44,155 bases of DNA, from sequence record MK931440.1. One strand, given 5' to 3'. Position 1 is the stretch's first letter, and every line of letters begins with the position of its first letter. A program made the position numbers and the translations under genes. The notes under the pieces were generated by a model. The model worked only from the letters and a program-made list of their open reading frames with translations. It made no database searches and had not been told where the DNA came from. Shown here piece by piece: positions 3,879-43,927 of the stretch. This DNA comes from Escherichia phage Shashou.

Positions 3879-3905
3879 TTTATGCCTCCTGTTTAAGTTA
3901 ACTGA

Positions 3906-3934
3906 ATAGTACCCTATTATATTGGTGTCTGCAA
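3906..3934 (-). promoter_or_regulatory. promoter TTGCAG-N17-TACTAT (minus strand) with palindrome AATAG-tacc-CTATT
   Basis: Read on minus strand; palindrome at 3905..3918; drives moron 3357..3878. Confidence 0.45.
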
Positions 3935-5510: not shown

Positions 5511-5571
5511 CGCCTGTGATTATTCCAGTTATTCCACTCAATTGTAAATGTTGGAATAAACTATTCGAATA

Positions 5572-5600
5572 GTTGACTTTTCACTAAAAATGTGCTAAGC
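5572..5600 (+). promoter_or_regulatory. sigma70-like promoter TTGACT-N17-(TGc)TAAGCT upstream of spanin/scaffold/capsid genes
   Basis: -35 and extended -10 with 17-nt spacer; near-identical copy at 37502..37530. Confidence 0.5.
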
Positions 5601-5800
5601 TCCACCTGAGCTTGTGAAGTATGAACAAGCGACCGCGGCGCGGGCAGGTAACGGAGCGGGACGTAAGTCCTGAGTGTAGTTACGCTGACGCGTTCGGAAG
5701 GGCCATACTCTATTGCTTGTGTAAAAAGTAACTGGTTTACTGAGATTACGCCGTTTCTATGTTTAAATGATAAGGACTAGCGCCCAGCTTTAAGGCTGGG
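5601..5800 (+). ncRNA. candidate noncoding leader/small RNA (copy 1)
   Basis: No ORF; conserved 41-nt 5' element with hairpin gcttgt-N9-acaagc shared with 37531..37571; ends near hairpin cccagc-tttaag-gctggg about 5771..5793. Confidence 0.3.
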
Positions 5801-12436: not shown

Positions 12437-12667
12437 TCACACATCAATGTTACTCCTGTACTCCCGTAACTTCTCCAGGCTTTCGATTGCCTCAGCTAAG
12501 TCTGTCCAGGCGTCCTTGTGACCACGTAAACCCATACACAATAGCTTCTTCAATGCGTGCTGTAACGCCGGGTCGCGTATGTCGAAGGCGCGTAGCACGT
12601 CGTAAACGTCTACAGTCATAGTGCTGCCGTAGGTGTTTGTCATTGTGCGGTTGTATTTATTTGTCAC
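12437..12667 (-). CDS. hypothetical protein
   Basis: 76-aa ORF overlapping upstream gene; part of leftward operon. Confidence 0.5.
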   Translation of the reverse strand: MTNKYNRTMTNTYGSTMTVDVYDVLRAFDIRDPALQHALKKLLCMGLRGHKDAWTDLAEAIESLEKLREYRSNIDV

Positions 12668-12857
12668 TGTTAACTCTCTTAAATCTGGCTATGCCTGACT
12701 CGTTAATGTTGCCTATTTCAAAGAAGCTGCGATATTTAGGCGAATACATTCTTACATCGCCATTCTCTAGGGTGACTCCTTCGTACACCGCACCTACTTC
12801 GAACCCATTTTTCTCTGCATACGGACTTACCTCGGTGCATTCATACATGTCTTTCAT
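12657..12857 (-). CDS. hypothetical protein
   Basis: 66-aa ORF with ATGA overlap to phosphoesterase gene stop. Confidence 0.5.
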   Translation of the reverse strand: MKDMYECTEVSPYAEKNGFEVGAVYEGVTLENGDVRMYSPKYRSFFEIGNINESGIARFKRVNSDK

Positions 12858-13984
12858 CCCAGCATCTCCGGTGAAATAGTTAAACGTGCGACCTCGCCGT
12901 ATTCGGCGCTATAAGTAATTACATTTGCACTGCGGCCTGACATCCACCCGCCGCGGGAGGCGTAGGCATCTTTAGCCGCCAGGGTGCGGTGTTGTTCAAC
13001 AATCATGTTACGGCTTTCTACAATCTTTTGGTGGTGCAGGTGACCTACGTGGGCGTAGCTGTAAACACTCTCGCCGAACGCTTTGCGGAACTTGGCAATC
13101 ATAACCGGTTCGATAATGTCGAATCGCGCCTTATGCCCGTGATGAAAGAACAGCGTCGTTTTGCCGTGTTGCACCATCTTGTAAACATCCGGCGACGTGT
13201 CGACAATCACTCGGCTGTCGTTTGAGTATAAAGTCGCGAACATTTCCGCCAGCCATACGGACCCTACAGGATCGTGATTTCCTTGCACGATAAGCAAGCG
13301 AACGGTTTTATGTTTAACCAGCGCCATATCTACAACACGGCGGACCATACGAATCATGTAGCGGACAAGTTTCTGGTAGCGAGTGTCCGCGTCCAGCACA
13401 TGACGTGACTCAGGTGTAACGGCGTCCAGACTATCGAAGTGTACGAAGTCTCCTAGCAGATTAATAACCCCTGTTCCTGCATCCGGTGCTTTCTGAAACG
13501 CCGCATCGAACCATCGAGAGAACAGGTCTTCCGCAATCTTCATATCCCAGTCGTCGCCGCTCTCGTCGGCCCATGCCAGCATACCAAGATGAAAATCAGA
13601 CACGGTGTAAAGATTGAGTAGCTTGTCGTCGCGTTTGGCTCGAGTCGCTTTAACAGGAGCAACGGGCGTAATCTCTGACTTCATGCCTTCGATCACGGCT
13701 TTCATCAATTCAACCTGACGTTCGGCATCGGTGTCGGTCTTAACCCATTGCAACTTAGTGTTGCCGAACTCATCCACAAGTGACGACGTTCCTTTAATCT
13801 TGTAGCCGTCCGGCACAAGGTGGCTAACGTCGCGCCCGTGACCTACGCCTTTCTTCGCCAGCTTCGCTTTACGGATACGGATAACGCGGTCTGAGATTCC
13901 ATACTTACGTGCGATATCAATAATTTTTGTTCCGGCGTTCAATTCTTCCCGTAACTGTTCGTCGGTTATTTTCTTATGAGCCAT
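12854..13984 (-). CDS. HTH domain fused to calcineurin-like metallophosphoesterase
   Basis: N-terminal HTH-like KIIDIARKYGISDRVIRIRKAKL; ordered MPP motifs SDFHLG, GDFVHFD, GNHD, HHGH, GHLHH. Confidence 0.7.
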   Translation of the reverse strand: MAHKKITDEQLREELNAGTKIIDIARKYGISDRVIRIRKAKLAKKGVGHGRDVSHLVPDGYKIKGTSSLVDEFGNTKLQWVKTDTDAERQVELMKAVIEGMKSEITPVAPVKATRAKRDDKLLNLYTVSDFHLGMLAWADESGDDWDMKIAEDLFSRWFDAAFQKAPDAGTGVINLLGDFVHFDSLDAVTPESRHVLDADTRYQKLVRYMIRMVRRVVDMALVKHKTVRLLIVQGNHDPVGSVWLAEMFATLYSNDSRVIVDTSPDVYKMVQHGKTTLFFHHGHKARFDIIEPVMIAKFRKAFGESVYSYAHVGHLHHQKIVESRNMIVEQHRTLAAKDAYASRGGWMSGRSANVITYSAEYGEVARLTISPEMLG

Positions 13985-14023: not shown

Positions 14024-14215
14024 TCACTTCTCTTTGACATTCGAGTTGCACGCCCAGATTAAAATAAATACCCACGGCAGCAGAACCCAACCGAGAAACA
14101 GATTAGCCATGAATATCGCTAATTTAGCTTTATGGTTGCGCATATGCGCCACGAGAAATGGGATAAAATAAACTAAAACGATAACGATTAAGAAGAACAT
14201 AGTAATACCTGTCAT
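14024..14215 (-). CDS. superinfection-immunity-like small membrane protein
   Basis: Start at Met47 of track ORF with AGGAG RBS; 63 aa with two hydrophobic segments flanking HMRNHKAK; resembles Imm-type small membrane proteins. Confidence 0.55.
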   Translation of the reverse strand: MTGITMFFLIVIVLVYFIPFLVAHMRNHKAKLAIFMANLFLGWVLLPWVFILIWACNSNVKEK

Positions 14216-14256
14216 GGTGTAGCTCCTGTTCGAGTTAACATTGTTGGTGTAAGTGA

Positions 14257-14285
14257 ATAGTATCCTATTATGTTGGGGTGCGCAA
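14257..14285 (-). promoter_or_regulatory. promoter TTGCGC-N17-TACTAT (minus strand) with palindrome AATAG-tatc-CTATT
   Basis: Palindrome at 14256..14269; region is reverse-complement homologous to 37799..37835; drives Imm-like/phosphoesterase operon. Confidence 0.5.
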
Positions 14286-14393
14286 GTAATGTGATAGAAT
14301 AATTTTGCGCCTAGTGTCGCACACGAAAAGCGGGTGGTTCCCGTCTGGCGCATTTACCATTAACCTGTAACCTCTTAACCAAAGGATTAAAGA

Positions 14394-19789: not shown

Positions 19790-22335
19790 CATTACATTAC
19801 ACCCGTAACGAAGACGGTACTTTCGACCGCGAACGGCACAACGTACCGCCGATGGAATACGTCGTCGCTAACATCCCCGACGGGGTGCCTGTACGTATTT
19901 ACCGTGGCGAGATCGGCGAGGACACGGAAGTAACTGAAGATTTCGAAGCGCTGAAAGAAGACGATGTTTTCCATATTATCGAAGGCGCTGGTGGCGGTGG
20001 CGGTTTTCTGGGTAAACTCCTGGACCCTTTGGGTGTGCTTAAATTTGTTACCAAGTTGATTTCTCCGTCGCAGAAAACGCCTAAAACGAGTTTAGCGAAC
20101 CAGCAGGCTGAGTCCCCCAACAACAGCCTGACGGACCGAAGCAATAAACCCCGTCCATATGAACGGTCGTATGATATTTGCGGCAGAGTCCAGACTATCC
20201 CTAATGACCTCATGACTACCTATAAAATATTCGATGAATCTGGTCGCATTATTGAATACGGATACTACGATGCCGGTCGTGGGTATCTGGACATCAAGGC
20301 CGAAGATATTACCGACGGCGATACTAAGGTACAGGAGATTACGGGGACCTCTGTCGCGGTGTACGCGCCGTTTACATCCCCCAACAATACAAATACCCCG
20401 CAGCTTCTGGTGGGGGAACCTATCAATCAGAATCTTTATATAACTATCGCGTCTAATGAAGTAGATGGAGCCGTTCTTAAAGCCCAGAACGATATTCGGG
20501 TCAACCCAAGCGACACGGGCCGCGTGAGATATGACTCTGCTACAAAAATTGGATACCTGTATGACGACACGGGGGATTCTGGCTTCGCGGAAATATTATC
20601 TGTTGGTGACACCGCGTCGTTCAATAACTTTGACGTTCCGGACGTAACAAATACCAACGGCAACTTTCGTGTTCTTTATGTCGATAACTTCGAGCTGCGG
20701 GTCGACACCGGCGGCGCGTCTAATTGGGCTGCTTTAGGCTCAACCACCTATTCACTTTCCCAGAGAAGTGACACGTGGGTAGGCCCCGTGGATACGTATG
20801 AAAGAACATTAACCGACTGGACCACCTTAAACCGCCTGGAAGTTGAACGCGTAGTAGCCAACATCGCTGCCGCTAACGGTATGTATAAAGACAACGGCAG
20901 TAAATTGCGTACGTCGGTAACTATTGAACTCCAATACCAACTACTCGATGAAACCGGTGCCCCATACGGGAGTATCTATTCAAAACAGGCCGTTATATCT
21001 GGTCGGTCCGCCGACTACACCGGAGTTACTATTTACGCCGACTTGCCCATGAGGTCGAAAGTTAGGGTACGTGCCCGTCGTGTTACCAACCTGGACCTTG
21101 ATTTCGAGGGCACCGTGGTAGACGAGGTTTCCTATATCAACCTTTACGGTCAGGTCCGTGACACTACGCCACATTACGGCAATCGTACCACCGTACACTC
21201 GGCACGTAAGCAGACGCCGCGGGCCGCAGAGATTAAGCAACCACAGTTACGTATGGTCGCCACAGAGATGGTGTACAAATACCTCGGTAATGGTGTATTC
21301 GACACCGTAATGACACCGAATACTCAGGCCATTCAATCATTAATACGTCTCGCCCGTGACCCGGTAGTAGGTAATCTCAACCTAACAACATCCAATATGG
21401 ACAAGTTGTTAGCGACTCAAACCGAAATAGAAAACTATTTCGGTAACGTTGAGGCTGGGCAATTCTGCTACACTTTTGACGACTATAAAATGACCATGCA
21501 GGATATCATCAGCACAATAGCCGATGCTATTTTCTGCACTCCATATCGTAAAGGGCAAGACATATTACTGGATTTCGAGCGCCCGCGTATGGGGCCGGAA
21601 ATGGTATTCACACATCGAAGTAAGACAACAGCTTCGGAAAAGTGGACGCGCACATTCAACGACGCTCAGGTATACGATAGTCTTAAGTTCTCCTACATCG
21701 ACCCAGATACTAACGTAAAAGAGACCATCAGCATTCCCGCCGAGGGCGGTGTTAACACAGAAACGTATGACTCTAAAGGTATACGTAATTATCGTCAGGC
21801 GTACTGGGCGGCGTACCGTCGGTACCAGAAGAACCTGTTGAAGAAGGTGACGGTATCATTCACGGCGACAGAAGAAGGGGTTTTTGTGCTTCCAGGACGG
21901 GCAATAAGCGTAGTTAAAGGTTCACGCGTAGCACCCCAAGACGGTTATGTTATTGCGGTTAATGGCCTTACCCTGACGCTATCACAGCCTGTTACGTTTA
22001 CCCCAGGAGATGACCACTCCATCATCCTCAAGAAGCGAGACGGAGGAGTTCAAAGTGTTGCCGTTGTGCCGGGAAGCCACGACCGTGAAGTGGTTATGCT
22101 ATCTGCGCCACAGGAAGCAATCTACACGGGGAATAGTGCGCTAAAAACTGAGTTTTCATTCGGCAACGAAGCAAGGCATAATGCTCAGATGATTCTTGTT
22201 TCCACAGTTGACCCCGGAGATGACAGAACGGTCAAGATTACGGGTTACAACTATGACGACGGATTCTATAAATACGATGGCGTCGCGCCATACGGCAGCG
22301 GTTTCTCCGACGGATTCAGCAATGGTTTTAATTAA
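19780..22335 (+). CDS. tail tip / central fibre protein (gpJ-like) with gpI-like N-terminal region
   Basis: Long ORF; start uncertain (track opens at TTG 19705; TTG 19780 has GGAG RBS; first ATG 19852); N-terminal Gly-run GAGGGGGF. Confidence 0.6.
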   Translation: MALTLHYTRNEDGTFDRERHNVPPMEYVVANIPDGVPVRIYRGEIGEDTEVTEDFEALKEDDVFHIIEGAGGGGGFLGKLLDPLGVLKFVTKLISPSQKTPKTSLANQQAESPNNSLTDRSNKPRPYERSYDICGRVQTIPNDLMTTYKIFDESGRIIEYGYYDAGRGYLDIKAEDITDGDTKVQEITGTSVAVYAPFTSPNNTNTPQLLVGEPINQNLYITIASNEVDGAVLKAQNDIRVNPSDTGRVRYDSATKIGYLYDDTGDSGFAEILSVGDTASFNNFDVPDVTNTNGNFRVLYVDNFELRVDTGGASNWAALGSTTYSLSQRSDTWVGPVDTYERTLTDWTTLNRLEVERVVANIAAANGMYKDNGSKLRTSVTIELQYQLLDETGAPYGSIYSKQAVISGRSADYTGVTIYADLPMRSKVRVRARRVTNLDLDFEGTVVDEVSYINLYGQVRDTTPHYGNRTTVHSARKQTPRAAEIKQPQLRMVATEMVYKYLGNGVFDTVMTPNTQAIQSLIRLARDPVVGNLNLTTSNMDKLLATQTEIENYFGNVEAGQFCYTFDDYKMTMQDIISTIADAIFCTPYRKGQDILLDFERPRMGPEMVFTHRSKTTASEKWTRTFNDAQVYDSLKFSYIDPDTNVKETISIPAEGGVNTETYDSKGIRNYRQAYWAAYRRYQKNLLKKVTVSFTATEEGVFVLPGRAISVVKGSRVAPQDGYVIAVNGLTLTLSQPVTFTPGDDHSIILKKRDGGVQSVAVVPGSHDREVVMLSAPQEAIYTGNSALKTEFSFGNEARHNAQMILVSTVDPGDDRTVKITGYNYDDGFYKYDGVAPYGSGFSDGFSNGFN

Positions 22336-27538: not shown

Positions 27539-27568
27539 TTCTCAATTCCTTATATTGTTGGTGTAGGG

Positions 27569-27856
27569 CTAACTATAATAGTTCGCTATTAGGTCGTCAA
27601 CCTGTTTAAACGAACCAACGACAAAAACATTTGCACCACGTTTACGCATCCGCTCGTGCTCTCGTAGCTGGTGGGGGTCCGGCTTCGTGTTTTCATCTTT
27701 CTTAACCTCGACGAACCAGATGACGCTGCCGGGGAGGATTACCAGCAGGTCAGGGGCGCCCACTCTATTTTCGTACGACAATTTGCGTACGAGGCCCCCC
27801 AGGGCCTCGAATCGGTCTTTTGCGTATTTCTGAACAACTCCTTCTTTAGTCGCCAT
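27569..27856 (-). CDS. VRR-NUC domain nuclease
   Basis: PD-(D/E)xK signature GAPDLLV ... FVEVKK in a 95-aa protein. Confidence 0.65.
   Translation of the reverse strand: MATKEGVVQKYAKDRFEALGGLVRKLSYENRVGAPDLLVILPGSVIWFVEVKKDENTKPDPHQLREHERMRKRGANVFVVGSFKQVDDLIANYYS
27572..27600 (-). promoter_or_regulatory. promoter TTGACG-N17-TATAGT (minus strand) with palindrome AATAG-ttcg-CTATT
   Basis: Palindrome at 27577..27590 in spacer; upstream of helicase operon. Confidence 0.55.
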
Positions 27857-30712: not shown

Positions 30713-30724
30713 TATTTTCGACCC

Positions 30725-30752: not shown

Positions 30753-30771
30753 AGTTAAATCGATTCAGATA

Positions 30772-31398
30772 TTAGCGACGGCGACGTTCGCGGCGCGGTG
30801 CTGCATCTTCATCGTCGTCTTCCAGGTCATCGACACTTGCGGCGACTTTAGAACCACCGAACGCTTTACCTTCGCCAACATATTTAATTGCCAGAAGGTT
30901 AACACCGAGGACTTTGTATTTCTGGCTGAACCAGATTTCGACGCTTACGTTAGCAACGCAGCCGCTGTAAACCTGTTCACCTTCAATCTGTTCGCCGTCT
31001 ACGTTGAAGTCCTGTTCTACCTGAGTCTCACCTTTTTTAGAGGTTACAATCAGTGGCTGTTTCTGCGCCTTCGCTTTGAAGTAGAAGCCTTCCGGGAAAT
31101 CTTCAAACGGATTGTCGCGCTCGGCAATGTCTTTAATCGCGCATTTATCCATGTGCTTACCTTCGCCGTAGTTGGACTTCATCCATTTCTCGGCGGCGGC
31201 GGCACCTAATGCTTCTTCAACTACAGCATAAACAGCGTCGTATAGCGCGTCGATTTGAGCATGGTCGGACGGCAGGATAATCGTTGCGCTGTACTGGCCC
31301 TTAGTGATTGAGCCATCATCGTTTTCACGGTCTTTTTCGCGTTCGAATACGTTAACCCATGCAGTGTTTACTTTACGCAGATTTAATTTCAGTCCCAT
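30772..31398 (-). CDS. ssDNA-binding protein (T7 gp2.5-like, putative)
   Basis: N-terminal TAWVNVFEREKD...ILP and C-terminal acidic tail DDLEDDDED; position in replication module. Confidence 0.55.
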   Translation of the reverse strand: MGLKLNLRKVNTAWVNVFEREKDRENDDGSITKGQYSATIILPSDHAQIDALYDAVYAVVEEALGAAAAEKWMKSNYGEGKHMDKCAIKDIAERDNPFEDFPEGFYFKAKAQKQPLIVTSKKGETQVEQDFNVDGEQIEGEQVYSGCVANVSVEIWFSQKYKVLGVNLLAIKYVGEGKAFGGSKVAASVDDLEDDDEDAAPRRERRRR

Positions 31399-31456
31399 CG
31401 TGATTTCTCGCTTTTAAGTTTCGTTTACTCCGGGAAGCTGCCCGGCCAGTGATTTA

Positions 31457-31485
31457 ACTATAATAGTTTGCTATTCAGGTGTCAA
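31457..31485 (-). promoter_or_regulatory. promoter TTGACA-N17-TATAGT (minus strand) with palindrome AATAG-tttg-CTATT
   Basis: Palindrome at 31462..31475; upstream of SSB/DNA polymerase operon. Confidence 0.55.
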
Positions 31486-31489
31486 CACT

Positions 31490-31678
31490 TTATTTACTAT
31501 CTGGGTTAATTACATGCCTTACATCAATCTTACCTTTGTTAACCATTCGGATAATTTTACCCATCTCGTCGTGCATTACCATATTAAATACGCGGCGTAT
31601 CGTTTTGTTTTTACCTAGCTTTGCCCCGTTTCGGTACTGTTCTACGTAGCTTTTTTGCAATTCTTGAATCGTACTCAT
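31490..31678 (-). CDS. hypothetical protein
   Basis: Start at Met11 of track ORF with AGGAGG RBS; ATGA overlap with upstream exonuclease gene. Confidence 0.5.
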   Translation of the reverse strand: MSTIQELQKSYVEQYRNGAKLGKNKTIRRVFNMVMHDEMGKIIRMVNKGKIDVRHVINPDSK

Positions 31679-32931
31679 TCTAAATCCTCCTCTGTTACAC
31701 GGTCCCACTCAGGCCGTTTATCGTCTGCCGCGGCGACGCATGGCGCTCCCGGCTTACGGGTAATGAAGTCTTTCAGTTCTTCTTCCGGGATAACTTTAAC
31801 AGCTTCTGTCGGCGTCATGAGCACTTCTTTAGTCAGCTTGTCGCCGTAGAGTTCTGCTACTTTCTCTGCATCTTTCCACGCACGATTACCAGGACGACCC
31901 TCGACCAACTTGTACCCTAGCACTTTCTTACCGGAATGTAACGCAGCTGCCATCGCTTTCTCAACCTTGTCGATGTGCTGTCGTAACAGCGGTAACTTCT
32001 CATACTCAGCGACGAGTTGCTCAGGTGTCAGTTCAAGCGCAAAGTCGTCCTCCAGTTCTTCTGCCAGTACCGCGTTAACCGTCTTCGTACGTGCGGCGCA
32101 CTGTTCAGAGAACCGACACCACTGACAACCATCGACCGACGGCTTGAAGTCCGACGCTTTCAGGTTCTTCTTGCCACGGGAATAGGCATCTAACGTTAAC
32201 AGCGCACGTTTCTGCGCGAACTTAGCGAACAGTTCCAGACCTTCAACCGAGATGTCCCACTCTGACGCACCACCAGCATACGGCTGGAAGATGACAAGAC
32301 GAACGGTTGTTATGCTATAACGTCTCTTGAGTCGGCGATAAACACCGAGAGCGTAAAGCATAAGCTGTTTGTTTTCTTTCGCTTCGACACGATGTCGCCC
32401 GGTTTTCAGGTCGCCGATGATAAGCATGTACTCGTCGGTGTTGGCCCGTTCCTGAACGGCGACAAGGTCAGCGGTCCCGAACGTCTCAACGCCTTCATAG
32501 CCTGGATGCAATACCTCAGTAAGATTTACGCGCATTTCCAGCTTGGCGTAAGTCGCTACGTCGATAATCGCTTTGCAGTAATCGGTGTACTTGCGCACCT
32601 GCTCAATCATATCCGCCGTAATTAGTACCGCGCCTTTCATTGGGCTGATTAGTGCCTTAATCTGGCCTCTACCCTCATCCAGCACATAAGCGCCGACTTC
32701 GCGCTCTAACGGCAACGCAGTCCCGCGGATATAGGCGTTGAGATGGACCTCTGCTATGGTGTGGCACGCGGTCCCTGTAACGGCGGCTTTACCAGACGTG
32801 TTAGGAATATCTTTTTCACAGGCCAGTGACGCACTGCACGTCAGCCACTTCTTAGCACCCGACGGTGACAATATGGCGTGCACATCATTATTGCCCCCGC
32901 GTTCCTTTAAAATCATACCCTGTTCTCCCAC
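31675..32931 (-). CDS. PD-(D/E)xK exonuclease, Cas4/RecB-like with Cys cluster
   Basis: Nuclease core IIGDLKTG ... Q.MLYALG; C-terminal cysteines C-x2-C-x5-C (DGCQWCRFSEQC) typical of Fe-S cluster. Confidence 0.65.
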   Translation of the reverse strand: MGEQGMILKERGGNNDVHAILSPSGAKKWLTCSASLACEKDIPNTSGKAAVTGTACHTIAEVHLNAYIRGTALPLEREVGAYVLDEGRGQIKALISPMKGAVLITADMIEQVRKYTDYCKAIIDVATYAKLEMRVNLTEVLHPGYEGVETFGTADLVAVQERANTDEYMLIIGDLKTGRHRVEAKENKQLMLYALGVYRRLKRRYSITTVRLVIFQPYAGGASEWDISVEGLELFAKFAQKRALLTLDAYSRGKKNLKASDFKPSVDGCQWCRFSEQCAARTKTVNAVLAEELEDDFALELTPEQLVAEYEKLPLLRQHIDKVEKAMAAALHSGKKVLGYKLVEGRPGNRAWKDAEKVAELYGDKLTKEVLMTPTEAVKVIPEEELKDFITRKPGAPCVAAADDKRPEWDRVTEEDLE

Positions 32932-33185
32932 TGGTCAATTAAATGTCTCGTCTTATGGTCGCAATGTAAGGCCCATCCATACATCGACTCGAAGACATAA
33001 AAGTCAGGTTTGGCGAATGTCGTGCGCTTAATCTGCGACACGTGACGGCCTGTATCTTTGGGCCGTGGTGCTTTGCCTAAGTACGCCATTTCTTCCATCT
33101 GATGCGCACCGGATGGCGCACGCAATAGCCACAACGCCTCGGTGTTATCGCGCCTGTCTACGGCTCGGTAGAGTTGGTAAATCAT
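32913..33185 (-). CDS. hypothetical protein
   Basis: 90-aa ORF overlapping exonuclease start; GAGGG RBS. Confidence 0.5.
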   Translation of the reverse strand: MIYQLYRAVDRRDNTEALWLLRAPSGAHQMEEMAYLGKAPRPKDTGRHVSQIKRTTFAKPDFYVFESMYGWALHCDHKTRHLIDQWENRV

Positions 33186-33228
33186 AATTCCGACCCTCAG
33201 TTAAAGCGGCCCGGAGGCCGCAGGATAA

Positions 33229-33720
33229 TTATTCTTCTTCGAAATACTTGTTCTTGATTGCCGTCAGGCGCTCCAGGTATTCAACCAGGTCTTCGTCTTT
33301 AATCGCGGCAATCTTCATCTTCTTACCGGTGAACTCTTCCAGCAGTTCATCGGAGTCATCGCACGCGGCATCGCTCGGGCCTTCGTTAATCGCACCGTCG
33401 ATAGCCTGAATCTGGTCGCGCAGAGACTGGTAATCGACTTCTTCTTCCGGTTCTGGCGTCGGCTCCTCTACTTTAGCTTTACGCGGCTTGCGTTTCGGCT
33501 TCTCTTCTTCTTCCGGTTTAGTGTCGACTACGTCTTCACCTTCAACCGGGATTTCTTTTGTTTCTTCTTTAATACTTTCAGAGAACTGCTCAATTTTATG
33601 CGCGGCTACTGCGGCGGCCTCTTTGGCAGTAGTTGGCGCGAACTGTTTTGCACTGTTCGCAGCAATCAGTTCATGGGCAACTACGAAACGCTCCAGTAAT
33701 TTCAGAAATTGTTCTAACAT
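33229..33720 (-). CDS. hypothetical acidic protein
   Basis: 163-aa ORF with AGGAGAG RBS; highly acidic central region. Confidence 0.55.
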   Translation of the reverse strand: MLEQFLKLLERFVVAHELIAANSAKQFAPTTAKEAAAVAAHKIEQFSESIKEETKEIPVEGEDVVDTKPEEEEKPKRKPRKAKVEEPTPEPEEEVDYQSLRDQIQAIDGAINEGPSDAACDDSDELLEEFTGKKMKIAAIKDEDLVEYLERLTAIKNKYFEEE

Positions 33721-33735
33721 TTGTTTCTCTCCTGT

Positions 33736-33885
33736 TTATTTATACTTAACGGTTTTGACTAACTGGCCTGTTGCTTTGTCGAAGAAGCCAACACGATTGT
33801 TGCTTACGCTATATCGTGCGGTTTCTTTAGTTCCAAATGCGATATCAAGGCCTAACAGAATCTTTGCTTTGCGGTTGTTAACCAT
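33736..33885 (-). CDS. small hypothetical protein (49 aa)
   Basis: First ORF downstream of promoter 33916..33944 with GGAGAG RBS; not in ORF track. Confidence 0.4.
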   Translation of the reverse strand: MVNNRKAKILLGLDIAFGTKETARYSVSNNRVGFFDKATGQLVKTVKYK

Positions 33886-33915
33886 TGTGTCTCTCCTCTC
33901 GTTTGGTATGGGCTA

Positions 33916-33944
33916 ACTATAATAGCGAACTATTCACTTGTCAA
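33916..33944 (-). promoter_or_regulatory. promoter TTGACA-N17-TATAGT (minus strand) with palindrome AATAG-cgaa-CTATT
   Basis: Palindrome at 33921..33934; upstream of exonuclease operon; divergent from XRE gene. Confidence 0.55.
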
Positions 33945-33964
33945 TGGGTTTTTCTAAAATAATT

Positions 33965-33978
33965 AATATGGTACTATT
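33965..33978 (+). promoter_or_regulatory. degenerate palindrome AATAT-ggta-CTATT upstream of XRE regulator gene
   Basis: Overlaps a TACTAT -10-like hexamer about 30 nt upstream of the XRE start. Confidence 0.35.
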
Positions 33979-34008
33979 CACGCATCAACTAACTAAGGAG
34001 TAACTGAC

Positions 34009-34224
34009 ATGCAACCATCTGAACTAGGCATCCGTGTAGAACAACGCCGTAAAGAACTCGGCATCTCCCAGCGCCGTCTGGCTGTCCTGACTGGCGTTTC
34101 CCAGGGCGCGATTAACCAACTGGCACTTGGGGTAACTCAGGACGTCCGCCCGGCGACGCTGTTTAAACTGGCGGAAGTGCTGGAGATAGACGCCAAGTGG
34201 CTGGCGTTAGGTGAAGGGGCTTAA
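34009..34224 (+). CDS. HTH XRE-family transcriptional regulator
   Basis: HTH ISQRRLAVLTGVSQGAINQLALG; RBS aaggag; plus-strand gene flanked by minus-strand operons. Confidence 0.75.
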   Translation: MQPSELGIRVEQRRKELGISQRRLAVLTGVSQGAINQLALGVTQDVRPATLFKLAEVLEIDAKWLALGEGA

Positions 34225-34242
34225 TGCCCCTTTCTTTTTATA
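34212..34242 (+). terminator. intrinsic terminator overlapping XRE stop codon
   Basis: aggggc-ttaa-tgcccct followed by T-rich tract; stop codon lies in the loop. Confidence 0.55.
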
Positions 34243-34255
34243 GCAACTTATCGAG

Positions 34256-34552
34256 CTATTCCAAATTCTTAATCGTGTGTTGCACGTTCAGGTACTGAAT
34301 CCACGCAAAAAGCCATACGCTTAACGGAAAACTAACCACAGCTGCCGTTCTGAAAACAATGTGGACGGTACACGCTACAATTTCCTTTACCGTCATATCC
34401 AGAACGTGGCGCAATTCTGCAACTTCCTCTAACGCTAGCTTGCAAGCAGGCCACCATTGGTGTGCTACACAAGAAACACATGTCAGGTACGACGGGCGGT
34501 ATCCAGCCCTCACTGCTTTAAACGGGTTATCTATAAAATCGTAGATATTCAT
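34256..34552 (-). CDS. hypothetical protein
   Basis: ATGA overlap with primase-helicase stop; C-terminal hydrophobic segment. Confidence 0.45.
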   Translation of the reverse strand: MNIYDFIDNPFKAVRAGYRPSYLTCVSCVAHQWWPACKLALEEVAELRHVLDMTVKEIVACTVHIVFRTAAVVSFPLSVWLFAWIQYLNVQHTIKNLE

Positions 34553-36810
34553 TCCAAATCCTCTTCTGTCACTATCAGCATCTCATTCGGCTCGTATATT
34601 GTCTTCGGAATCTTGTTATCGTTTATGCCCCACGGCAGCCGATATTGCTTAGGTATAGGCCTGTTGTTATTATCCAGCCCAGAGACGATAACCCCGGCCT
34701 CGTGCATCTCCTCCAGTTTCTTTCGAAGGTCGTTATTAGCGTTAATCGGTACACCATAACTATCTTCTTTCACCGCTTTGACGATAGCGGACATAGAAAA
34801 CCCTCGCTTGTCGTCGCCCTGCTCCTGCAATTTACCTAATGCGTAAATAACCGTAGCTTCTTTGGTGCCCAGTTTCTCGAACTGGCCTACCTTTTCTTTA
34901 ACGGCTTCCTTCTGTTCGTCGGTCATACCTTCTACTTTCTTCACGAAGACAGAGAAGGCGTTAAAGTTAACAAAGACATCGATGTGCGGATTTCCCGCGT
35001 CAAAATCTCGTACATCGTCACTGCTATACCCTTCCGGAAGCACCATGAAGTTGTGAGTTGGTTCTTTCTTTTCCGGCGGCTCCGCTATCTGAATCTTCTG
35101 TATTACGAATCCTCTGGCTTTCTGCCGTTCTCCGTTTCGGTTCTTTATGTGATACAGGTTTATCTCTAAGTTATTGTCGTTGTCTGGTTTATGCAGGAAC
35201 ATCCCGTTATCGATGGAGTTGTGAAAGTCGCTCCCACCCTTCGGCATCATGCCGTTTTCAGACGGTACGGTTTCGTCGATGTTTTTAGTCGGGTGCACCA
35301 TAGCGCCTACCGCAGCGTTAAGCGTCGACGCTATTTCGTTAAGCGCCTGCGCCGCTTCTTTCATCGACCTGTTGTCGTTCTCGTCGAAGCCTGGTATGCA
35401 AGTTTGTAGGGTATCAAACGTAACCTTTACAATTTTCTCTTCACCGGCGACACGGCGCATCATTCTTACCGCCTGGCGGCGCCATGCTTCATCAAGTAAA
35501 TTACACCCATCGGCAACACAATCGATAATGTGCAAGCGGTCCAGGCTATCCCCGAGGGCAATCTGCAAAGACTTTTTATGTCGCTCGAACGACTGTGCGC
35601 CTTCACCGGCGAAAATGAACGCATGTCCTTCTGCAACCTCTGCCCCACCGAACGCATATCTTTTTTCGGCGGCAATAGCGGCGTCAATCGCCATACTAAA
35701 TGTCGACTTACCAGTGTGGGACTTTGCGCAAATGTAAAACGATTCGTTAGTCTGCATAAGGCCGTCTACGACGGAGTAAGCAGGTTCTTTTTCAACTTCC
35801 GGCTCGTCTTCGAGGTCTTCCAGAGTGCAAGTTACAGGCTCTTCATTCTCTGTGCGGTGTAATTCCTCAATCTCTTCGTCCGGTAAATCAGGCAGAGCCG
35901 CACGAATGCTGTTAATACTGATAGGTTGCTTGTCTACGTTAAGCTCGTCCGGAAGACCGCACATACGCAGAGCCAAATGTTGTCGGCGGTTAAGCTCGGT
36001 GCAAGCGCCGTTGTTTGTGTGCTGGCACACGAAGCGCACTTCTTTACCATCAAGCATAATGCTGGTAGAGCCTTTGCCGGTGTGCAGGTGTTCGTTAGGG
36101 CAAGGCACTTCGTACCCGCGACCGGAAGATAAAGCGTCAAGGCCAAGCTCCGCTTCGCAGAAATGCGCTATATCCGCGTTAAGCCCATGCTCATCGGCAG
36201 CAAGGGTCTTAGCTTCACGTTTACGCAACCCCATTTCTTCGGCTTTCTTGATGTACCGCTCGGCACGGATAACACGCCCTTCTGTAACCGTTATCTTCGA
36301 CTCTTTATGCGGCAGGTAGATAAGGCGGTTGCCATCTTCTGTGCAGTGGTCACGCAGCGCTTCGTCTATCTCTAACTCTGCACAAATGGCGCGTTGTACC
36401 ATCCACGCATCGTTAGAGTTAAACGGCGTGCGTGCAGGTACAAGAACGCGAAAGGCGTAATCCCCGTTTTTACACGCGTGCTGATGCGACGCCGTTGTGT
36501 GCAGAATGTTGAAGAACGGCGCGTTCTTGAATTTGCGCGTCAGGTCGCGGTACTGAGCGCGGTTGAGATGGTCAAAGTCGAACTTAACCACACTGTCTTC
36601 CAGAATCGCGTTCTTACGGCGACCGCCAACCGGCGCAATAGCTTTCTGCTTAATCTTGGCCGCGTCGTACTCTTCCTTAGTCCATGACGGGTCTACGGAC
36701 AGACGCTTCGATGTATCGCAGACATACTCTACAAACTGCTCCAGTGGCATTTCACGGGCTACCGGGTTTTTATCGAATGTGTTACGCAGCGTTGCAAAAA
36801 CAATATTCAT
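34549..36810 (-). CDS. DNA primase / RecA-like ATPase (primase-helicase)
   Basis: Cys/His cluster CPNEH...C...C in N-terminal half; Walker A AKSHTGKST and Walker B-like HIIDCV in C-terminal half. Confidence 0.6.
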   Translation of the reverse strand: MNIVFATLRNTFDKNPVAREMPLEQFVEYVCDTSKRLSVDPSWTKEEYDAAKIKQKAIAPVGGRRKNAILEDSVVKFDFDHLNRAQYRDLTRKFKNAPFFNILHTTASHQHACKNGDYAFRVLVPARTPFNSNDAWMVQRAICAELEIDEALRDHCTEDGNRLIYLPHKESKITVTEGRVIRAERYIKKAEEMGLRKREAKTLAADEHGLNADIAHFCEAELGLDALSSGRGYEVPCPNEHLHTGKGSTSIMLDGKEVRFVCQHTNNGACTELNRRQHLALRMCGLPDELNVDKQPISINSIRAALPDLPDEEIEELHRTENEEPVTCTLEDLEDEPEVEKEPAYSVVDGLMQTNESFYICAKSHTGKSTFSMAIDAAIAAEKRYAFGGAEVAEGHAFIFAGEGAQSFERHKKSLQIALGDSLDRLHIIDCVADGCNLLDEAWRRQAVRMMRRVAGEEKIVKVTFDTLQTCIPGFDENDNRSMKEAAQALNEIASTLNAAVGAMVHPTKNIDETVPSENGMMPKGGSDFHNSIDNGMFLHKPDNDNNLEINLYHIKNRNGERQKARGFVIQKIQIAEPPEKKEPTHNFMVLPEGYSSDDVRDFDAGNPHIDVFVNFNAFSVFVKKVEGMTDEQKEAVKEKVGQFEKLGTKEATVIYALGKLQEQGDDKRGFSMSAIVKAVKEDSYGVPINANNDLRKKLEEMHEAGVIVSGLDNNNRPIPKQYRLPWGINDNKIPKTIYEPNEMLIVTEEDLE

Positions 36811-37002: not shown

Positions 37003-37215
37003 TTATTTATCGCCTGCAAACCACGCGTGCGCAGAATCATAGAAACGACATTTACTTAATACCTCGATTGGCATCTTAATAATGCGCGTCGGTTCCGACA
37101 AATGATTAGGCTTACATATTTCTGCATAGAATCCGCTGTCAGTAATTTCTGACGCAAACTTAAACCAGTATTTAACTTTACCGTCTTCAAAGTAACAACC
37201 CATACGCCCAATCAT
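37003..37215 (-). CDS. hypothetical protein
   Basis: 70-aa ORF, ATGA overlap with upstream HTH gene. Confidence 0.45.
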   Translation of the reverse strand: MIGRMGCYFEDGKVKYWFKFASEITDSGFYAEICKPNHLSEPTRIIKMPIEVLSKCRFYDSAHAWFAGDK

Positions 37216-37394
37216 TTCACGTTCTCCTTAATCCATGCTTCAACTTTATTACGGTCAAATGTACCCGGTAAACGGCGGCCCATTACTTTAATACAGCAGT
37301 CAGGGAATTTACCACTGCGCAGCCAGTTATTAATTGTCTGACGTGTCACACCGATACGTTCTGCTACTTCATTCTGGGTCATGTAATGTTGCAT
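37212..37394 (-). CDS. HTH DNA-binding protein (Cro/AlpA-like, putative)
   Basis: Start at Met25 of track ORF with AGGAG RBS; HTH MTQNEVAERIGVTRQTINNWLRSG; first gene of leftward operon. Confidence 0.6.
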   Translation of the reverse strand: MQHYMTQNEVAERIGVTRQTINNWLRSGKFPDCCIKVMGRRLPGTFDRNKVEAWIKENVK

Positions 37395-37790: not shown

Positions 37791-37798
37791 CTAATCTC

Positions 37799-37827
37799 TT
37801 GCACACCCCAACATAATAGGATACTAT
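37799..37827 (+). promoter_or_regulatory. promoter TTGCAC-N17-TACTAT with palindrome AATAG-gata-CTATT
   Basis: Palindrome (37815..37828) overlaps spacer and -10; drives 37862 gene block. Confidence 0.5.
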
Positions 37828-37861
37828 TCACTTATCGAAACGAGACAGAGGAGTGAGGGCT

Positions 37862-38429: not shown

Positions 38430-38432
38430 GTT

Positions 38433-38731: not shown

Positions 38732-38760
38732 TTGCACGCTGGGGAAGAATAGGATACTAT
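38732..38760 (+). promoter_or_regulatory. promoter TTGCAC-N17-TACTAT with palindrome AATAG-gata-CTATT
   Basis: Palindrome at 38748..38761; follows terminator 38616..38650. Confidence 0.5.
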
Positions 38761-38791
38761 TCATTTACACAAACGAGAGGAGAGGCAGAAT

Positions 38792-38941
38792 ATGGTTACT
38801 TTGATGATTATGGAGTTCGAAAACAGCGCTGCAACTTACCGCGAGATGACTATGGCGCAGGCGTACCACCTGGCTAAACACAGCAACTTCTACAAGGCTC
38901 AAATCATTAATGAGTTTGGGGTAATTGACTATGAATTTTAA
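38792..38941 (+). CDS. small hypothetical protein (49 aa)
   Basis: RBS gagaggagagg downstream of promoter 38732..38760; not in ORF track. Confidence 0.4.
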   Translation: MVTLMIMEFENSAATYREMTMAQAYHLAKHSNFYKAQIINEFGVIDYEF

Positions 38942-39911: not shown

Positions 39912-39912
39912 G

Positions 39913-42492: not shown

Positions 42493-42510
42493 ATTTTCTG
42501 TAATGACTAG

Positions 42511-42539
42511 TTGACTATTATTCTGACACCAATTATATT
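42511..42539 (+). promoter_or_regulatory. sigma70-like promoter TTGACT-N17-TATATT
   Basis: Near-consensus hexamers with 17-nt spacer, downstream of two terminators after the endolysin gene. Confidence 0.5.
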
Positions 42540-43523: not shown

Positions 43524-43694
43524 ATGTTCGATAATACTGACGCAGCAATCGAAGAAGCAATCTGGCGTCGCTACAACGGTGAGCAACAACGGCACTTCTG
43601 CCTGGTGCAGCGCGGTAACATGATTGCCGTAGTGCAGGACCGCGATAATAAATACCCAAATGCAATGTGGACGACGAGGAATTTCTTAGGATGA
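43524..43694 (+). CDS. small hypothetical protein (56 aa)
   Basis: ATG 2 nt after upstream stop; ATGA overlap with next gene; not in ORF track. Confidence 0.35.
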   Translation: MFDNTDAAIEEAIWRRYNGEQQRHFCLVQRGNMIAVVQDRDNKYPNAMWTTRNFLG

Positions 43695-43927
43695 TTACCA
43701 GCATTCCGAACCTGATTAAAGAATACGGCACGATGGCGGAGACATGCCGACAAACCGGCATCAATGAAATGACGATTCGCAAGTACAGCAAAGACGTAGA
43801 CTGCGAGCGCCATGTAATTTATAACAACCGCCTGATGACGCACGTCAGGACAAGCCCGGTGTTATTCACACGCCGTGGTATCACGAAGACTGAGCAACGT
43901 ATCGCACGAGAGGAGGGTGATGTATGA
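43691..43927 (+). CDS. hypothetical protein
   Basis: ATG at Met9 of track ORF. Confidence 0.4.
   Translation: MITSIPNLIKEYGTMAETCRQTGINEMTIRKYSKDVDCERHVIYNNRLMTHVRTSPVLFTRRGITKTEQRIAREEGDV

Follow-up and report, generated by a model that had tools for sequence, protein, structure and literature searches.

At positions 33,916 to 33,978 of the genome of Escherichia phage Shashou, two divergent promoters, one leading to an exonuclease operon and the other to a small XRE-type regulator gene, each carry a version of the same inverted repeat. This raises the question of whether the repeat, AATAG-N4-CTATT, is an operator, and which protein would read it. The window analyzed here is the whole stretch of 44,155 nucleotides; Shashou belongs to Kagunavirus, with 99.9% identity to phage Sciku across the 10 kb compared. 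A genome-wide search against a shuffled-sequence null, the check proposed in the initial annotation, upheld the enrichment: eight exact copies were observed versus 0.07 expected, the largest count in any of 100 dinucleotide-preserving shuffles being 1. With up to one mismatch allowed, 11 copies were found against 1.18 expected under the same null. Among all palindromes with 5-mer arms and spacers of 0-10, AATAG-N4-CTATT was the sole outlier (8 versus a maximum of 3 in 30 shuffles). In this virulent E. coli phage, nearly all early and replication promoters contain the 14-bp palindrome, which is genuine and, as described below, conserved.

Exact copies start at 3905, 14256, 21426, 27577, 31462, 33921, 37815 and 38748, and the three one-mismatch copies at 33965, 5568 and 42506. 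The seven exact sites listed in the initial annotation, together with the one-mismatch copy at 33965, were all recovered at the same coordinates, while the exact copy at 21426 and the one-mismatch copies at 5568 and 42506 had been overlooked. Its placement of the motif in promoter regions stands, with the count of "at least eight" becoming about ten. Seven of the eight exact copies are located within sigma70-type promoters in two registers, either filling the spacer or covering the -10 element. The sites are single and scattered over the genome, only 33921 and 33965 being paired, 44 bp apart. Individual sites, with the number of loci compared for each, are as follows.

33921..33934, exact operator AATAGCGAACTATT, class A: fills the spacer of the minus-strand promoter TTGACA (33944..33939)-N17-TATAGT (33921..33916), centre about -18.5; drives the operon from a 49-aa ORF (start 33885) through the exonuclease; half-sites nearly invariant (67 loci).
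31462..31475, exact operator AATAGTTTGCTATT, class A: spacer of minus-strand TTGACA (31485..31480)-N17-TATAGT (31462..31457); drives the SSB and DNA polymerase operon; half-sites kept, central N4 variable (76 loci).
27577..27590, exact operator AATAGTTCGCTATT, class A: spacer of minus-strand TTGACG (27600..27595)-N17-TATAGT (27577..27572), within the last codons of the VRR-NUC gene; drives a 63-aa ORF (start 27538) and the intein-containing helicase; conserved (80 loci).
37815..37828, exact operator AATAGGATACTATT, class B: over the -10 TACTAT (37822..37827) of a plus-strand promoter with -35 TTGCAC (37799..37804), centre about -12.5; drives a cassette of small early genes from 37862; in a divergent region shared with the minus-strand HTH_17 and primase operon; conserved (71 loci).
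38748..38761, exact operator, again AATAGGATACTATT, class B: over the -10 TACTAT (38755..38760) of a plus-strand promoter with -35 TTGCAC (38732..38737); the downstream ORF starts at 38792; conserved (56 loci).
14256..14269, exact operator, class B: over the -10 TACTAT (14262..14257) of a minus-strand promoter with -35 TTGCGC (14285..14280); drives an accessory cassette, embedded among tail genes, of an Imm-like protein (start 14215) and a phosphoesterase; Cornellvirus carries TATTATGAAACTAATA at the orthologous position.
3905..3918, exact operator, class B: over the -10 TACTAT (3911..3906) of a minus-strand promoter with -35 TTGCAG (3934..3929); drives the sliding-clamp gene (start 3878), embedded among head genes.
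33965..33978, one-mismatch operator AATATGGTACTATT: over the -10 TACTAT (33972..33977) of the promoter that serves the XRE gene itself; through its G-to-T mismatch the -10 becomes an extended one of TGn type, with a poor -35, TTTTTC; kept in weakened form (67 loci); proposed autoregulatory site of XRE.
42506..42519, one-mismatch site ACTAGTTGACTATT, class C: holds the -35 TTGACT (42511..42516) of a plus-strand promoter with -10 TATATT (42534..42539), centre about -33.5; directly past a terminator and upstream of an operon of small genes, a NinH-like gene and terminase; 14-mer almost invariant, downstream flank variable (49 loci); Jerseyvirus Ent1 has a mirror-image version, AATAGTTGACTAGT.
5568..5581, one-mismatch site AATAGTTGACTTTT, class C: holds the -35 TTGACT (5573..5578) of a plus-strand promoter with -10 TAAGCT (5596..5601); past the terminator at 5490 and upstream of spanin, scaffold and capsid genes; also found in the other three complete Kagunavirus genomes; with a footprint from only 4 loci, the weakest assignment among the ten promoter sites.
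21426..21439, exact copy AATAGAAAACTATT: off-promoter, within the tail J-like gene, as part of a perfect 10-4-10 hairpin ACCGAAATAG-AAAA-CTATTTCGGT; one mismatch in LM02P1, absent from K1ind2 and RP180; membership in the regulon is doubtful.

The promoters fall into three classes, the first two of which correspond to the two families recognized in the initial annotation. Class A comprises TTGACA/TTGACG-N17-TATAGT on the minus strand, scoring 10-11 of 12 and ranking at the top of promoter-like matches, with 17-bp spacers and hexamers near consensus. Class B comprises TTGCAC/TTGCGC/TTGCAG-N17-TACTAT on both strands; here the right half-site overlaps the -10 TACTAT, and the left half-site has no promoter role. 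In class C, the one-mismatch palindrome overlaps the -35 TTGACT of plus-strand promoters (5568 and 42506). The registers are fixed, with site centres at -18.5 (A), -12.5 (B) and -33.5 (C) as counted from inferred sigma70 start sites rather than mapped ones, and on the same sequence-inferred starts the operators overlap core promoter elements, as those of Cro/CI-type repressors do. The dyad is the sole element common to the three classes. A Shine-Dalgarno sequence and start codon lie within about 27-41 nt downstream of class A and B promoters, the SSB promoter with its longer leader being the exception. Two leader motifs are weakly enriched, AAACGAGAGGAGAG with 3 copies versus 0.27 expected and ACACCAACAAT with two exact copies. 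Bidirectional-promoter symmetry was considered as the source of the dyad and rejected, the reverse strands of class B having a poor -35 and class A being clearly unidirectional.

Comparison among relatives shows which positions are held in place. In the footprint, based on 49-80 loci per site except for 5568, hardly any change is seen in the -35, the -10 or either half-site, in contrast to N4 and the linker, which vary; 33 different N4 sequences occur among 145 unique Kagunavirus sites. A short dyad with conserved 5-4-5 half-sites and a variable centre is the form of a Cro/CI-type operator. In almost all Kagunavirus and Jerseyvirus loci of sufficient length (68 and 23 examined), AATAG-N4-CTATT ranked first among palindromes. 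At the orthologous cro-proximal promoter of Cornellvirus, the -35 and -10 are kept and the AATAG dyad is absent, implying that the dyad is an addition to the promoter. Instead, promoters of Cornellvirus SP-031 contain TAWTA-N6-TAWTA (7 observed versus 0.10 expected), as do those of phage ZS (6 versus 0.14), with the same geometry as the AATAG palindrome and seven of eight near-matches intergenic. The SP-031 sites had been inspected before this pattern was derived, and its one confirmation comes from ZS, a related phage; genome-wide one-mismatch 5-4-5 counting was too noisy to yield a Cornellvirus motif de novo, and the motif came from exact TATTA-N6-TAATA matches together with inspection of intergenic regions. 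The helicase-primase protein is mosaic even within Kagunavirus and was dropped as a synteny anchor for finding further clades.

The candidate reader of the palindrome is encoded beside the paired sites.

34009..34224, plus strand: gene of a 71-aa XRE/Cro-like protein with recognition helix GVSQGAINQLALG; proposed binder.

Its HTH_3 (Cro/C1-type) domain matches PF01381 at 5.6e-12, with 46 bits against a cut-off of 23, and its nearest solved relative by sequence is 434 Cro (7.7e-6), likewise of 71 aa. 434 Cro binds a 14-bp 5-4-5 operator. The AF2 model, a single-sequence prediction with pLDDT 79.5, has five helices arranged in the fold of 434 Cro, 434 repressor and P22 c2; Foldseek matched it to 434 Cro (2cro, 3cro) at 40% identity and TM 0.72-0.78, and further to HipB, SinR, P22 c2 and C proteins. 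A candidate operator at the regulator's own promoter, as known for such proteins, is present in sequence as the 33965 site. The recognition helix is essentially invariant in 68 Kagunavirus-type loci, with a single G-to-S variant. Furthermore, Cornellvirus SP-031 and phage ZS have XRE and the same-geometry promoter palindrome without HTH_17, the second small HTH protein of Shashou, and in one Kagunavirus contig (L073) unrelated genes replace HTH_17 while XRE and six exact sites are retained.

Further evidence comes from unrelated viral contigs. All six with an (S/T)QGxIxQ helix in their XRE homologue (L105, L106, L108, L109, L110 and L113) have A(A/T)TAG-N4-CTA(A/T)T 38-92 bp upstream, compared with 0 of 29 XRE homologues with other helices. 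This helix type is associated with this operator family at a Fisher probability of about 6e-7. The six contigs are a small sample, and some are akin to one another (the pairs L108/L109 and L105/L106). DNA at these sites is 46-63% GC, and four of the six contigs have a second site cluster 0.65-2.4 kb away. Inspection of ORFs showed divergent repressor/Cro-like switch regions in L105, L108 and L113, and the Cro-like partner in L108 has GVTQSAISH, which is the Cornellvirus XRE helix, adjoining ATTAG operators. Within the subfamily, covariation of helix and site is not clean: the Jerseyvirus helix SQSLITH differs from the Kagunavirus SQGAINQ, yet both share the same core motif; the Jerseyvirus helix resembles that of Cornellvirus, though the Cornellvirus motif differs; and L111 and L112, with QSxISQ helices, have no such palindrome.

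From these observations, we consider it probable, at roughly two chances in three, that the 71-aa, 434-Cro-like XRE protein encoded by the phage uses the palindrome as its operator, for Cro-style repression. The proposal in the initial annotation of one dimeric regulator, most simply XRE, over the early and replication operons and the minus-strand cassettes gains support, at the level of sequence, from the likeness to 434 Cro, the Cornellvirus and ZS genomes, L073 and the six unrelated contigs.

HTH_17 itself, a 60-aa excisionase/MerR-like protein at 37212..37394, could be imagined as the binder, acting as a repressor, an activator or a Q/AlpA-like antiterminator loaded at the promoter. The 37815 site does lie in the divergent region upstream of its operon, it is about 82% identical between Kagunavirus and Jerseyvirus compared with about 47% for XRE, and among the first four clades the exact AATAG dyad is confined to these two, where HTH_17 is present, and is missing from Cornellvirus and ZS, both of which lack HTH_17. 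However, the same-geometry palindromes in the promoters of those latter clades, the loss of HTH_17 from L073 with its six exact sites intact, and at least five recognition-helix variants alongside an unchanged motif in Kagunavirus led to HTH_17 being set aside, and we regard it as quite unlikely. None of its relatives below about 70% identity has the motif. Its model resembles, at weak E-values (5e-3 upward), winged HTH proteins of the BldC, Xis, RacA and gpNu1 type. Two of these, BldC and Xis, assemble on direct repeats, which also counts against this protein. A MerR-type spacer-binding activator was rejected as well: the class A spacers are of 17 bp between near-consensus hexamers and not the over-long 19-20 bp, and HTH_17, with a winged HTH and one short helix in its 60 aa, has no coiled-coil dimerisation helix. 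A Q/AlpA-like loading site in the spacer was set aside too; with 17-bp spacers and consensus hexamers, no activator is needed. It is likewise unlikely that the binder is the Fis-like NinH homologue (43667..43927), another uncharacterised small phage protein or a host protein. The NinH-like protein (PF06322, 7e-7, just below the Pfam cut-off) and several small ORFs are indeed common to Kagunavirus, Jerseyvirus and Cornellvirus, but none is present in the unrelated contigs that have the same operator family beside XRE homologues, and identity of the NinH-like protein is alike across clades (61-66%), unlike the preference for half-sites, which changes between them. Salmonella enterica is host to both Jerseyvirus and Cornellvirus, and these prefer different half-sites, which argues for phage-encoded rather than host-encoded specificity.

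Two further explanations dispense with a dedicated repressor. Seven hits found with PHIRE in fBC-Eco01, with consensus tgAATAGTa-ccTATTat-T, were called phage-RNA-polymerase promoters (PMC9825357), and seven PHIRE promoters were listed for Golestan (PMC7203180). On that published interpretation in related phages, the motif would serve a phage-specific RNA polymerase, or a sigma-like factor, as its promoter. The annotation of the Sciku genome, 99.9% identical, includes no RNA polymerase gene. A dedicated polymerase would also read an asymmetric element whose distance from the start site does not change, whereas the motif is a dyad whose centre is free to vary, placed in three different registers around good sigma70 hexamers with 17-bp spacers. 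We consider this explanation extremely improbable. The recurrence could also be a by-product of duplicated promoter cassettes or of -10-like symmetry, with no binding function, given that some leaders share sequence (AAACGAGAGGAGAG, ACACCAACAAT) and that the -10 TACTAT overlaps the right half-site in class B. Such an origin is very unlikely: the dyad alone is shared by classes with different registers, the left half-site is conserved like the right in spite of having no promoter role while N4 and linkers drift, and the same dyad family recurs beside XRE homologues in unrelated phages.

With XRE as the binder, the most likely mechanism, to judge from the arrangement of the sites, is Cro-style occlusion of host RNA polymerase. 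An XRE dimer would engage the two AATAG half-sites, which are 9 bp apart, with one recognition helix each and make no contact with the 4 bp at the centre. The near-consensus sigma70 promoters around the sites would be usable by host RNA polymerase unaided, and a protein bound within promoters that need no help should exclude the polymerase and lower their output. Following infection, host polymerase would fire the class A and B promoters and the XRE promoter, yielding the small early genes, exonuclease, SSB and DNA polymerase, helicase, sliding clamp and the Imm cassette. As XRE builds up, it would first fill the seven perfect operators, turning off early and replication transcription. One-mismatch sites, located at the XRE promoter and the -35 of the two structural/packaging promoters, would be filled later or partly, which would give autoregulation and longer-running late transcription. 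Binding, dimerisation, repression and the affinity hierarchy of XRE are all predicted here, repression from the position of the sites and the hierarchy from mismatch counts.

A bolder proposal, which we put forward tentatively and think possible but the less likely outcome, is that a lone Cro-sized XRE acts as the master timer of a virulent phage that encodes neither a polymerase nor a sigma factor. Early and replication promoters, with perfect sites in the spacer or -10 register, would be shut first. Promoters whose sites are imperfect by design, those with a -35-register site ahead of structural and packaging genes and the extended -10 promoter of XRE itself, would be spared longer or even stimulated, in the manner of restriction-modification (R-M) controller proteins. 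At 3905 and 14256, the bound dimer would choose between the minus-strand early cassette and the diverging plus-strand late genes. If this were true, the (S/T)QGxIxQ helix and the A(A/T)TAG half-site would constitute a transferable recognition rule for a widespread CI/Cro subfamily.

The literature search found no characterised AATAG/ATTAG operator, and no study of the transcription programme or promoters of Guernseyvirinae, beyond the PHIRE listings. Guernseyvirinae (Kagunavirus, Jerseyvirus and Cornellvirus) are among the phages most often isolated for E. coli and Salmonella therapy and biocontrol. If the assignment to XRE holds, a single 14-bp site and a single 71-aa protein would govern most of their early and replication promoters, the published reading of the motif as phage-polymerase promoters would be corrected, and early shut-off in a virulent phage relying on host polymerase alone would be explained. 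It would also provide a compact, probably orthogonal repressor/operator pair for phage engineering, with natural half-site variants in AATAG and the TATTAG-biased version of Cornellvirus, and would suggest a recognition rule for the CI/Cro subfamily in unrelated phages.

Several known systems share part of this arrangement. In phi29, p4 is a small DNA-binding protein of a virulent phage that sets the early-to-late programme with host polymerase, and XRE resembles it as a single small promoter-binding regulator; p4 differs in its unrelated fold, in activating a late promoter and in needing p6, whereas the position of the Shashou sites suggests repression only. The R-M controller proteins C.AhdI, C.BclI and C.Esp1396I are small dimers with an XRE fold and rank among the top structural matches to XRE. 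C proteins bind dyads over the -35 and -10, with concentration-dependent activation followed by repression. They differ in serving an R-M timing circuit at one promoter through a paired C-box rather than a single 14-bp site, and at the Shashou promoters no activation would be required because these are near consensus. Lambda Cro lowers PL and PR during lytic growth and binds its own promoter too. XRE would be alike as a small, early-made repressor that cuts early transcription as the lytic cycle proceeds, but lambda Cro has another fold, acts on two promoters and forms half of a bistable switch, while Shashou has no partner repressor and about ten targeted promoters. Instead of a partner CI, a 49-aa ORF without a Pfam match diverges from XRE; the tandem OR/OL operator clustering of a lambdoid switch is not seen, and the annotation of Sciku, 99.9% identical, lists no CI repressor, integrase, excision or lysogeny module.

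Parallels are also found in the switches of the six IMG/VR contigs; the isolates closest to these in CI sequence are Variovorax phage VarioGold and Burkholderia phage KL4. They have the same (S/T)QGxIxQ helix type as XRE and, directly upstream of the gene, A(A/T)TAG-N4-CTA(A/T)T, as in the operator family described here. The homologue encoded by L105 and L108 is a repressor of 229-230 aa that includes an S24 autocleavage domain and is accompanied by a divergent Cro-like gene and OR/OL-like site clusters, whereas in Shashou there is only a short protein of Cro size, and the many sites are dispersed. Phage 434 offers a likeness too: its Cro, with 71 aa and a five-helix HTH_3 fold, is the best solved relative of XRE by sequence. 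The 434 operator is a 14-bp dyad of 5-4-5 form with a free central 4 bp, it overlaps promoter hexamers, and a weaker site lies at the regulator's own promoter. Cro and repressor of 434 act at OR1-3 and OL1-3, of ACAAG-N4-CTTGT type, compared with the half-site AATAG in Shashou, where the sites are not in OR/OL triplets but single, at about ten promoters, in three registers and in a virulent genome. The type of switch is already familiar, that of a Cro-like protein, and in Shashou it is most likely spread over the whole genome.

The proposal of the initial annotation that the palindrome AATAG-N4-CTATT recurs in promoter regions was confirmed, and every coordinate given there is correct. Eight exact copies were observed in the window versus 0.07 expected from dinucleotide-preserving shuffles, which upholds the enrichment, and 11 versus 1.18 when one mismatch was allowed. 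When all 5-mer arms were counted at spacers of 0-10, this dyad was the sole outlier, with eight copies versus a maximum of three for any palindrome in 30 shuffled genomes. All the copies listed earlier stood, but the exact copy at 21426 and the one-mismatch copies at 5568 and 42506 had been omitted. The sites, named by start coordinate, are as follows.

33921, 31462, 27577; minus strand; class A, TTGACA/G-N17-TATAGT, dyad in the spacer
37815, 38748; plus strand; class B, TTGCAC/TTGCGC/TTGCAG-N17-TACTAT family, dyad on the -10
14256, 3905; minus strand; class B, same family, dyad on the -10
42506, 5568; plus-strand promoters; class C, one-mismatch dyad enclosing the -35
33965; promoter of the XRE gene itself; one-mismatch copy in the class B register
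21426; exact copy within the tail J-like gene, part of a 10-4-10 hairpin, poorly conserved

It can be observed that the promoter-associated dyads occupy three registers. In class A the dyad fills the spacer and its last base is the first T of the -10 (centre about -18.5); in class B the right half-site falls within the -10 (centre about -12.5); in class C, centred at about -33.5, both copies read AxTAGTTGACTxTT with the -35 hexamer TTGACT inside. At 33965 the G-to-T mismatch makes a TGn extended -10, and the adjoining -35 is poor. The dyad promoters are near consensus for sigma70. Those of classes A and B are followed by a Shine-Dalgarno sequence and, about 27-41 nt on, a start codon, except for the SSB promoter with its longer leader. 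They serve small early ORFs, the exonuclease operon, SSB and DNA polymerase, the helicase, the sliding clamp, and the Imm and phosphoesterase cassette. The promoters of class C directly follow terminators, ahead of structural, lysis or packaging genes. The copy at 21426 is enclosed in a perfect inverted repeat (21416..21449, ACCGAAATAG-AAAA-CTATTTCGGT), which has one mismatch in LM02P1 and is absent from K1ind2 and RP180; it could have arisen by chance, fold as a hairpin in RNA or serve as a cryptic binding site.

For each site, orthologous regions from 49-80 related loci were located by their flanks and then aligned. These alignments show almost no variation in the -35, the -10 or either half-site, and the central N4 and the linker from dyad to -35 are variable, with 33 distinct N4 sequences among 145 unique Kagunavirus sites. 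The left half-site is conserved equally to the right, though it plays no part in the class A and B promoters themselves, and at 33965 it is the weakened form of the copy that has been conserved. Apart from the dyad no element is common to the three classes, and the register of the dyad differs from class to class; duplication of a promoter cassette was therefore ruled out as its cause.

Escherichia phage Sciku (Kagunavirus, Guernseyvirinae) matches the window at 99.9% identity across the compared 10 kb (30000-40000), and its record also agrees in coordinates and XRE protein. It is annotated as a virulent-type siphovirus with no integrase, CI repressor or RNA polymerase. Its structural and lysis region lies on the plus strand and its replication region on the minus strand, and two minus-strand accessory cassettes sit among the head and tail genes. 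The replicative helicase-primase (34552..36810, minus strand) varies in mosaic fashion across the genus: identity of 95% or more is reached in only about 20 phage records, the match to K1ind2 and other Kagunaviruses is confined to the C-terminal half (about 31% identity), and Dhillonviruses match about 90% of its length (about 33%).

Two small HTH proteins are encoded in the window, XRE (71 aa, 34009..34224) and HTH_17 (60 aa, 37212..37394). XRE carries an HTH_3 domain (5.6e-12), and its nearest solved relative is 434 Cro (E = 7.7e-6), likewise of 71 aa. Its single-sequence AF2 model (five helices, pLDDT 79.5) matches 434 Cro at 40% identity and TM 0.72-0.78, and also HipB, SinR, P22 c2 and R-M controller proteins. 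The 434 and P22 operators have a 5-4-5 geometry with an uncontacted centre. Across 68 Kagunavirus-type loci the XRE recognition helix is essentially invariant, the sole exception being a G-to-S change in L079, and it is unchanged in L090, where the protein is only 77% identical overall. Furthermore, a scan of viral contigs for the helix motif also found distant homologues in unrelated phages (34-43% identity). The helix (S/T)QGxIxQ is present in six contigs (L105, L106, L108, L109, L110 and L113), and in all six an exact A(A/T)TAG-N4-CTA(A/T)T lies 38-92 bp upstream of the gene (for example ATTAGCAGGCTAAT, ATTAGCAAGCTAAT and AATAGCATCCTAAT), in DNA of 46-63% GC. Such a site was found near the gene in none of three viral contigs with other helices and none of 26 bacterial-genome relatives (33-44% identity), whose helices differ or could not be parsed by the script. 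The association is 6/6 versus 0/29 (Fisher ~6e-7, the six being partly non-independent).

In four of these six contigs, one or two further sites form a second cluster at a distance of 0.65-2.4 kb. Switch regions were judged from ORF reading in three: the homologue of L105 and L108 is a CI-type repressor of 229-230 aa with an S24 autocleavage domain, divergent from a Cro-like gene of 83-88 aa, and L113 has a low-GC repressor/Cro-like switch. The second ATTAG/AATAG set lies beyond the repressor gene (L105 10734/10759, L108 11186/11211, L109 12380/12405, L110 10649); in three of these four temperate-type contigs (L105, L108, L109) its sites are paired at a spacing of 25 bp. This resembles an OR/OL layout and may represent the OL-type cluster of an uncharacterised immunity system. 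The Cro-like partner in L108 has the Cornellvirus XRE helix, GVTQSAISH, and adjoins ATTAG-type operators, which fits the Cornellvirus preference for TATTAG; it also shows that one operator family can be served by two helix types, as with CI and Cro. An XRE protein with the Jerseyvirus recognition helix GVSQSLITHLATG, together with a AATAGAGTACTATT site, occurs in an assembly labelled Taishania pollutisoli, Bacteroidota (L114, NZ_JACVEL010000022.1), probably as phage contamination.

HTH_17 was at first a competing candidate, since the motif seemed to track its presence across clades. XRE identity is 93-100% within Kagunavirus, about 47% to Jerseyvirus and about 40% to both Cornellvirus SP-031 and phage ZS. 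For HTH_17, Kagunavirus and Jerseyvirus share about 82% identity, and SP-031 and ZS have no copy. These two phages also lack the exact dyad, which ranks first among the palindromes of Kagunavirus and Jerseyvirus Ent1. The Jerseyvirus XRE helix SQSLITH, moreover, seemed nearer to Cornellvirus TQSAISH than to Kagunavirus SQGAINQ. However, SP-031 and ZS have a palindrome of the same geometry, TAWTA-N6-TAWTA (equal to TAWTAS-N4-STAWTA), counted seven times versus 0.10 expected in SP-031, six versus 0.14 in ZS and five versus 0.20 in Ent1, the pattern having been defined after the SP-031 sites were seen and ZS being its sole, non-independent confirmation. It has no copy in an unrelated temperate Yersinia phage. 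In SP-031, 7/8 near-matches are intergenic, with -10 or -35 hexamers overlapped where the window has its orthologous sites, such as in the divergent region adjoining the tail assembly chaperone gene; the half-site favoured there is TATTA(G/C), not TAATAG. In the Kagunavirus-type genome L073 (IMG/VR, IMGVR_UViG_3300045988_014597), unrelated ORFs of 149 aa (no Pfam match) and 47 aa (a CxxC...CxxC pattern) replace the HTH_17 gene and its neighbour at 12559..13144, yet XRE and six exact sites are intact; this slot is evidently a mosaic hot spot. At least five variants of the HTH_17 recognition helix also occur alongside the unchanged motif, and on these three grounds HTH_17 was dropped. Its model weakly resembles the winged HTH domains of BldC, RacA, mycobacteriophage Xis and gpNu1 type (E-values from 5e-3); BldC and Xis assemble on direct repeats.

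Besides XRE, all three clades have in common a 163-aa protein of unassigned function, the NinH-like protein (PF06322, 7e-7) and the products of a few small ORFs that show no DNA-binding signature. These are the other candidates for dyad binding, but in the unrelated contigs the operator family occurs with none of them alongside. Jerseyvirus and Cornellvirus, both on Salmonella enterica, favour different half-sites, which makes a host factor unlikely. The earlier choice of XRE as regulator gains support from its likeness to 434 Cro, from L073, the same-geometry palindromes in genomes lacking HTH_17 and the helix-operator pairing, and the prediction that XRE is the binder, taken by itself, is made with good confidence. 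The motif has also been read as a promoter for a phage RNA polymerase: PHIRE on Kagunavirus fBC-Eco01 returned the consensus tgAATAGTa-ccTATTat-T seven times, with that interpretation (PMC9825357), and seven PHIRE promoters are listed for Golestan (PMC7203180). This reading does not fit an element that is a dyad, takes three registers relative to sigma70 hexamers and occurs where no polymerase gene is annotated. Our literature search found no paper treating the motif as an operator or characterising an AATAG/ATTAG operator; its recurrence was known already, and the operator reading is without precedent in the literature found.

Several leaders and gene starts bear further description. CPT_Sciku_024, a superinfection-immunity gene (14024..14353), is annotated to start at 14353, so that the 14256 promoter and operator would fall inside coding sequence. 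Downstream of this promoter, a Shine-Dalgarno sequence (AGGAG) and an ATG at 14215 open a 63-aa membrane-like protein, and the Ent1 orthologue carries the shorter annotated length. Sciku's start was therefore probably set too far out, and the same problem affects SP-031 gp17 (L003 14040..14291). The SSB (DUF2815) leader contains a GC-rich hairpin, GGCCGGGCAGCTTCCCGG (~31430..31447, minus strand), right after the class A promoter; Ent1 and SP-031 have similar sequence behind their orthologous promoters. The hairpin might act as a translational operator or as a 5' stem that stabilises the mRNA. A 49-aa ORF (MVTLMIMEFENSAATYREMTMAQAYHLAKH..., 38792..38941, plus strand) starts 31 nt past the -10 of the 38748 promoter and has a strong Shine-Dalgarno sequence; no gene is annotated there in Sciku, where the next starts at 38928. 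Short modules recur in leaders of several operator-bearing promoters (14240..14250 and 27554..27564, minus strand; 33891..33904 and 38771..38784): ACACCAACAAT has two exact copies in the window, and AAACGAGAGGAGAG two exact copies and one with one mismatch, versus 0.27 expected, which suggests shared cassettes of 5'-UTR and ribosome-binding site. Some Kagunaviruses have an extra exact site, caggtcAATAGnTTACTATTt (L006 36765, L008 39464, L073 14662), after tandem GGTGTAACAGGT repeats and just 5' of a conserved terminator (CTTACGCTGCTACACAGCA...), with no obvious promoter; the window has no exact dyad at the matching position. Kagunaviruses without the sliding-clamp cassette retain a one-mismatch dyad, TATAGTATGCTATT (L006 2790, L007 2776, L008 3399), directly after the portal terminator and about 30 nt ahead of the head-morphogenesis gene, which could be a relic of the clamp-cassette promoter or a control site for the late gene.

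Since the promoters are near the sigma70 consensus and no polymerase is encoded, Cro-style repression is the simplest reading. An XRE dimer on the dyad would block host RNA polymerase. Occupancy would begin at the seven perfect sites, which lie at early and replication promoters. The XRE promoter and both class C promoters, with their one-mismatch sites, would be bound later, which would provide autoregulation and allow late transcription to run longer. We infer XRE binding, dimerisation, the direction of regulation and the order of affinity from sequence. As a whole explanation, an XRE operator with Cro-style repression is given a probability of roughly two in three. These comparisons support a Cro-type repressor whose operator would be used genome-wide in a virulent phage. 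The element would work like a Cro operator of the 434 or P22 type, and it differs from the lambdoid immunity switch in having no CI, lysogeny module or clustered operators.
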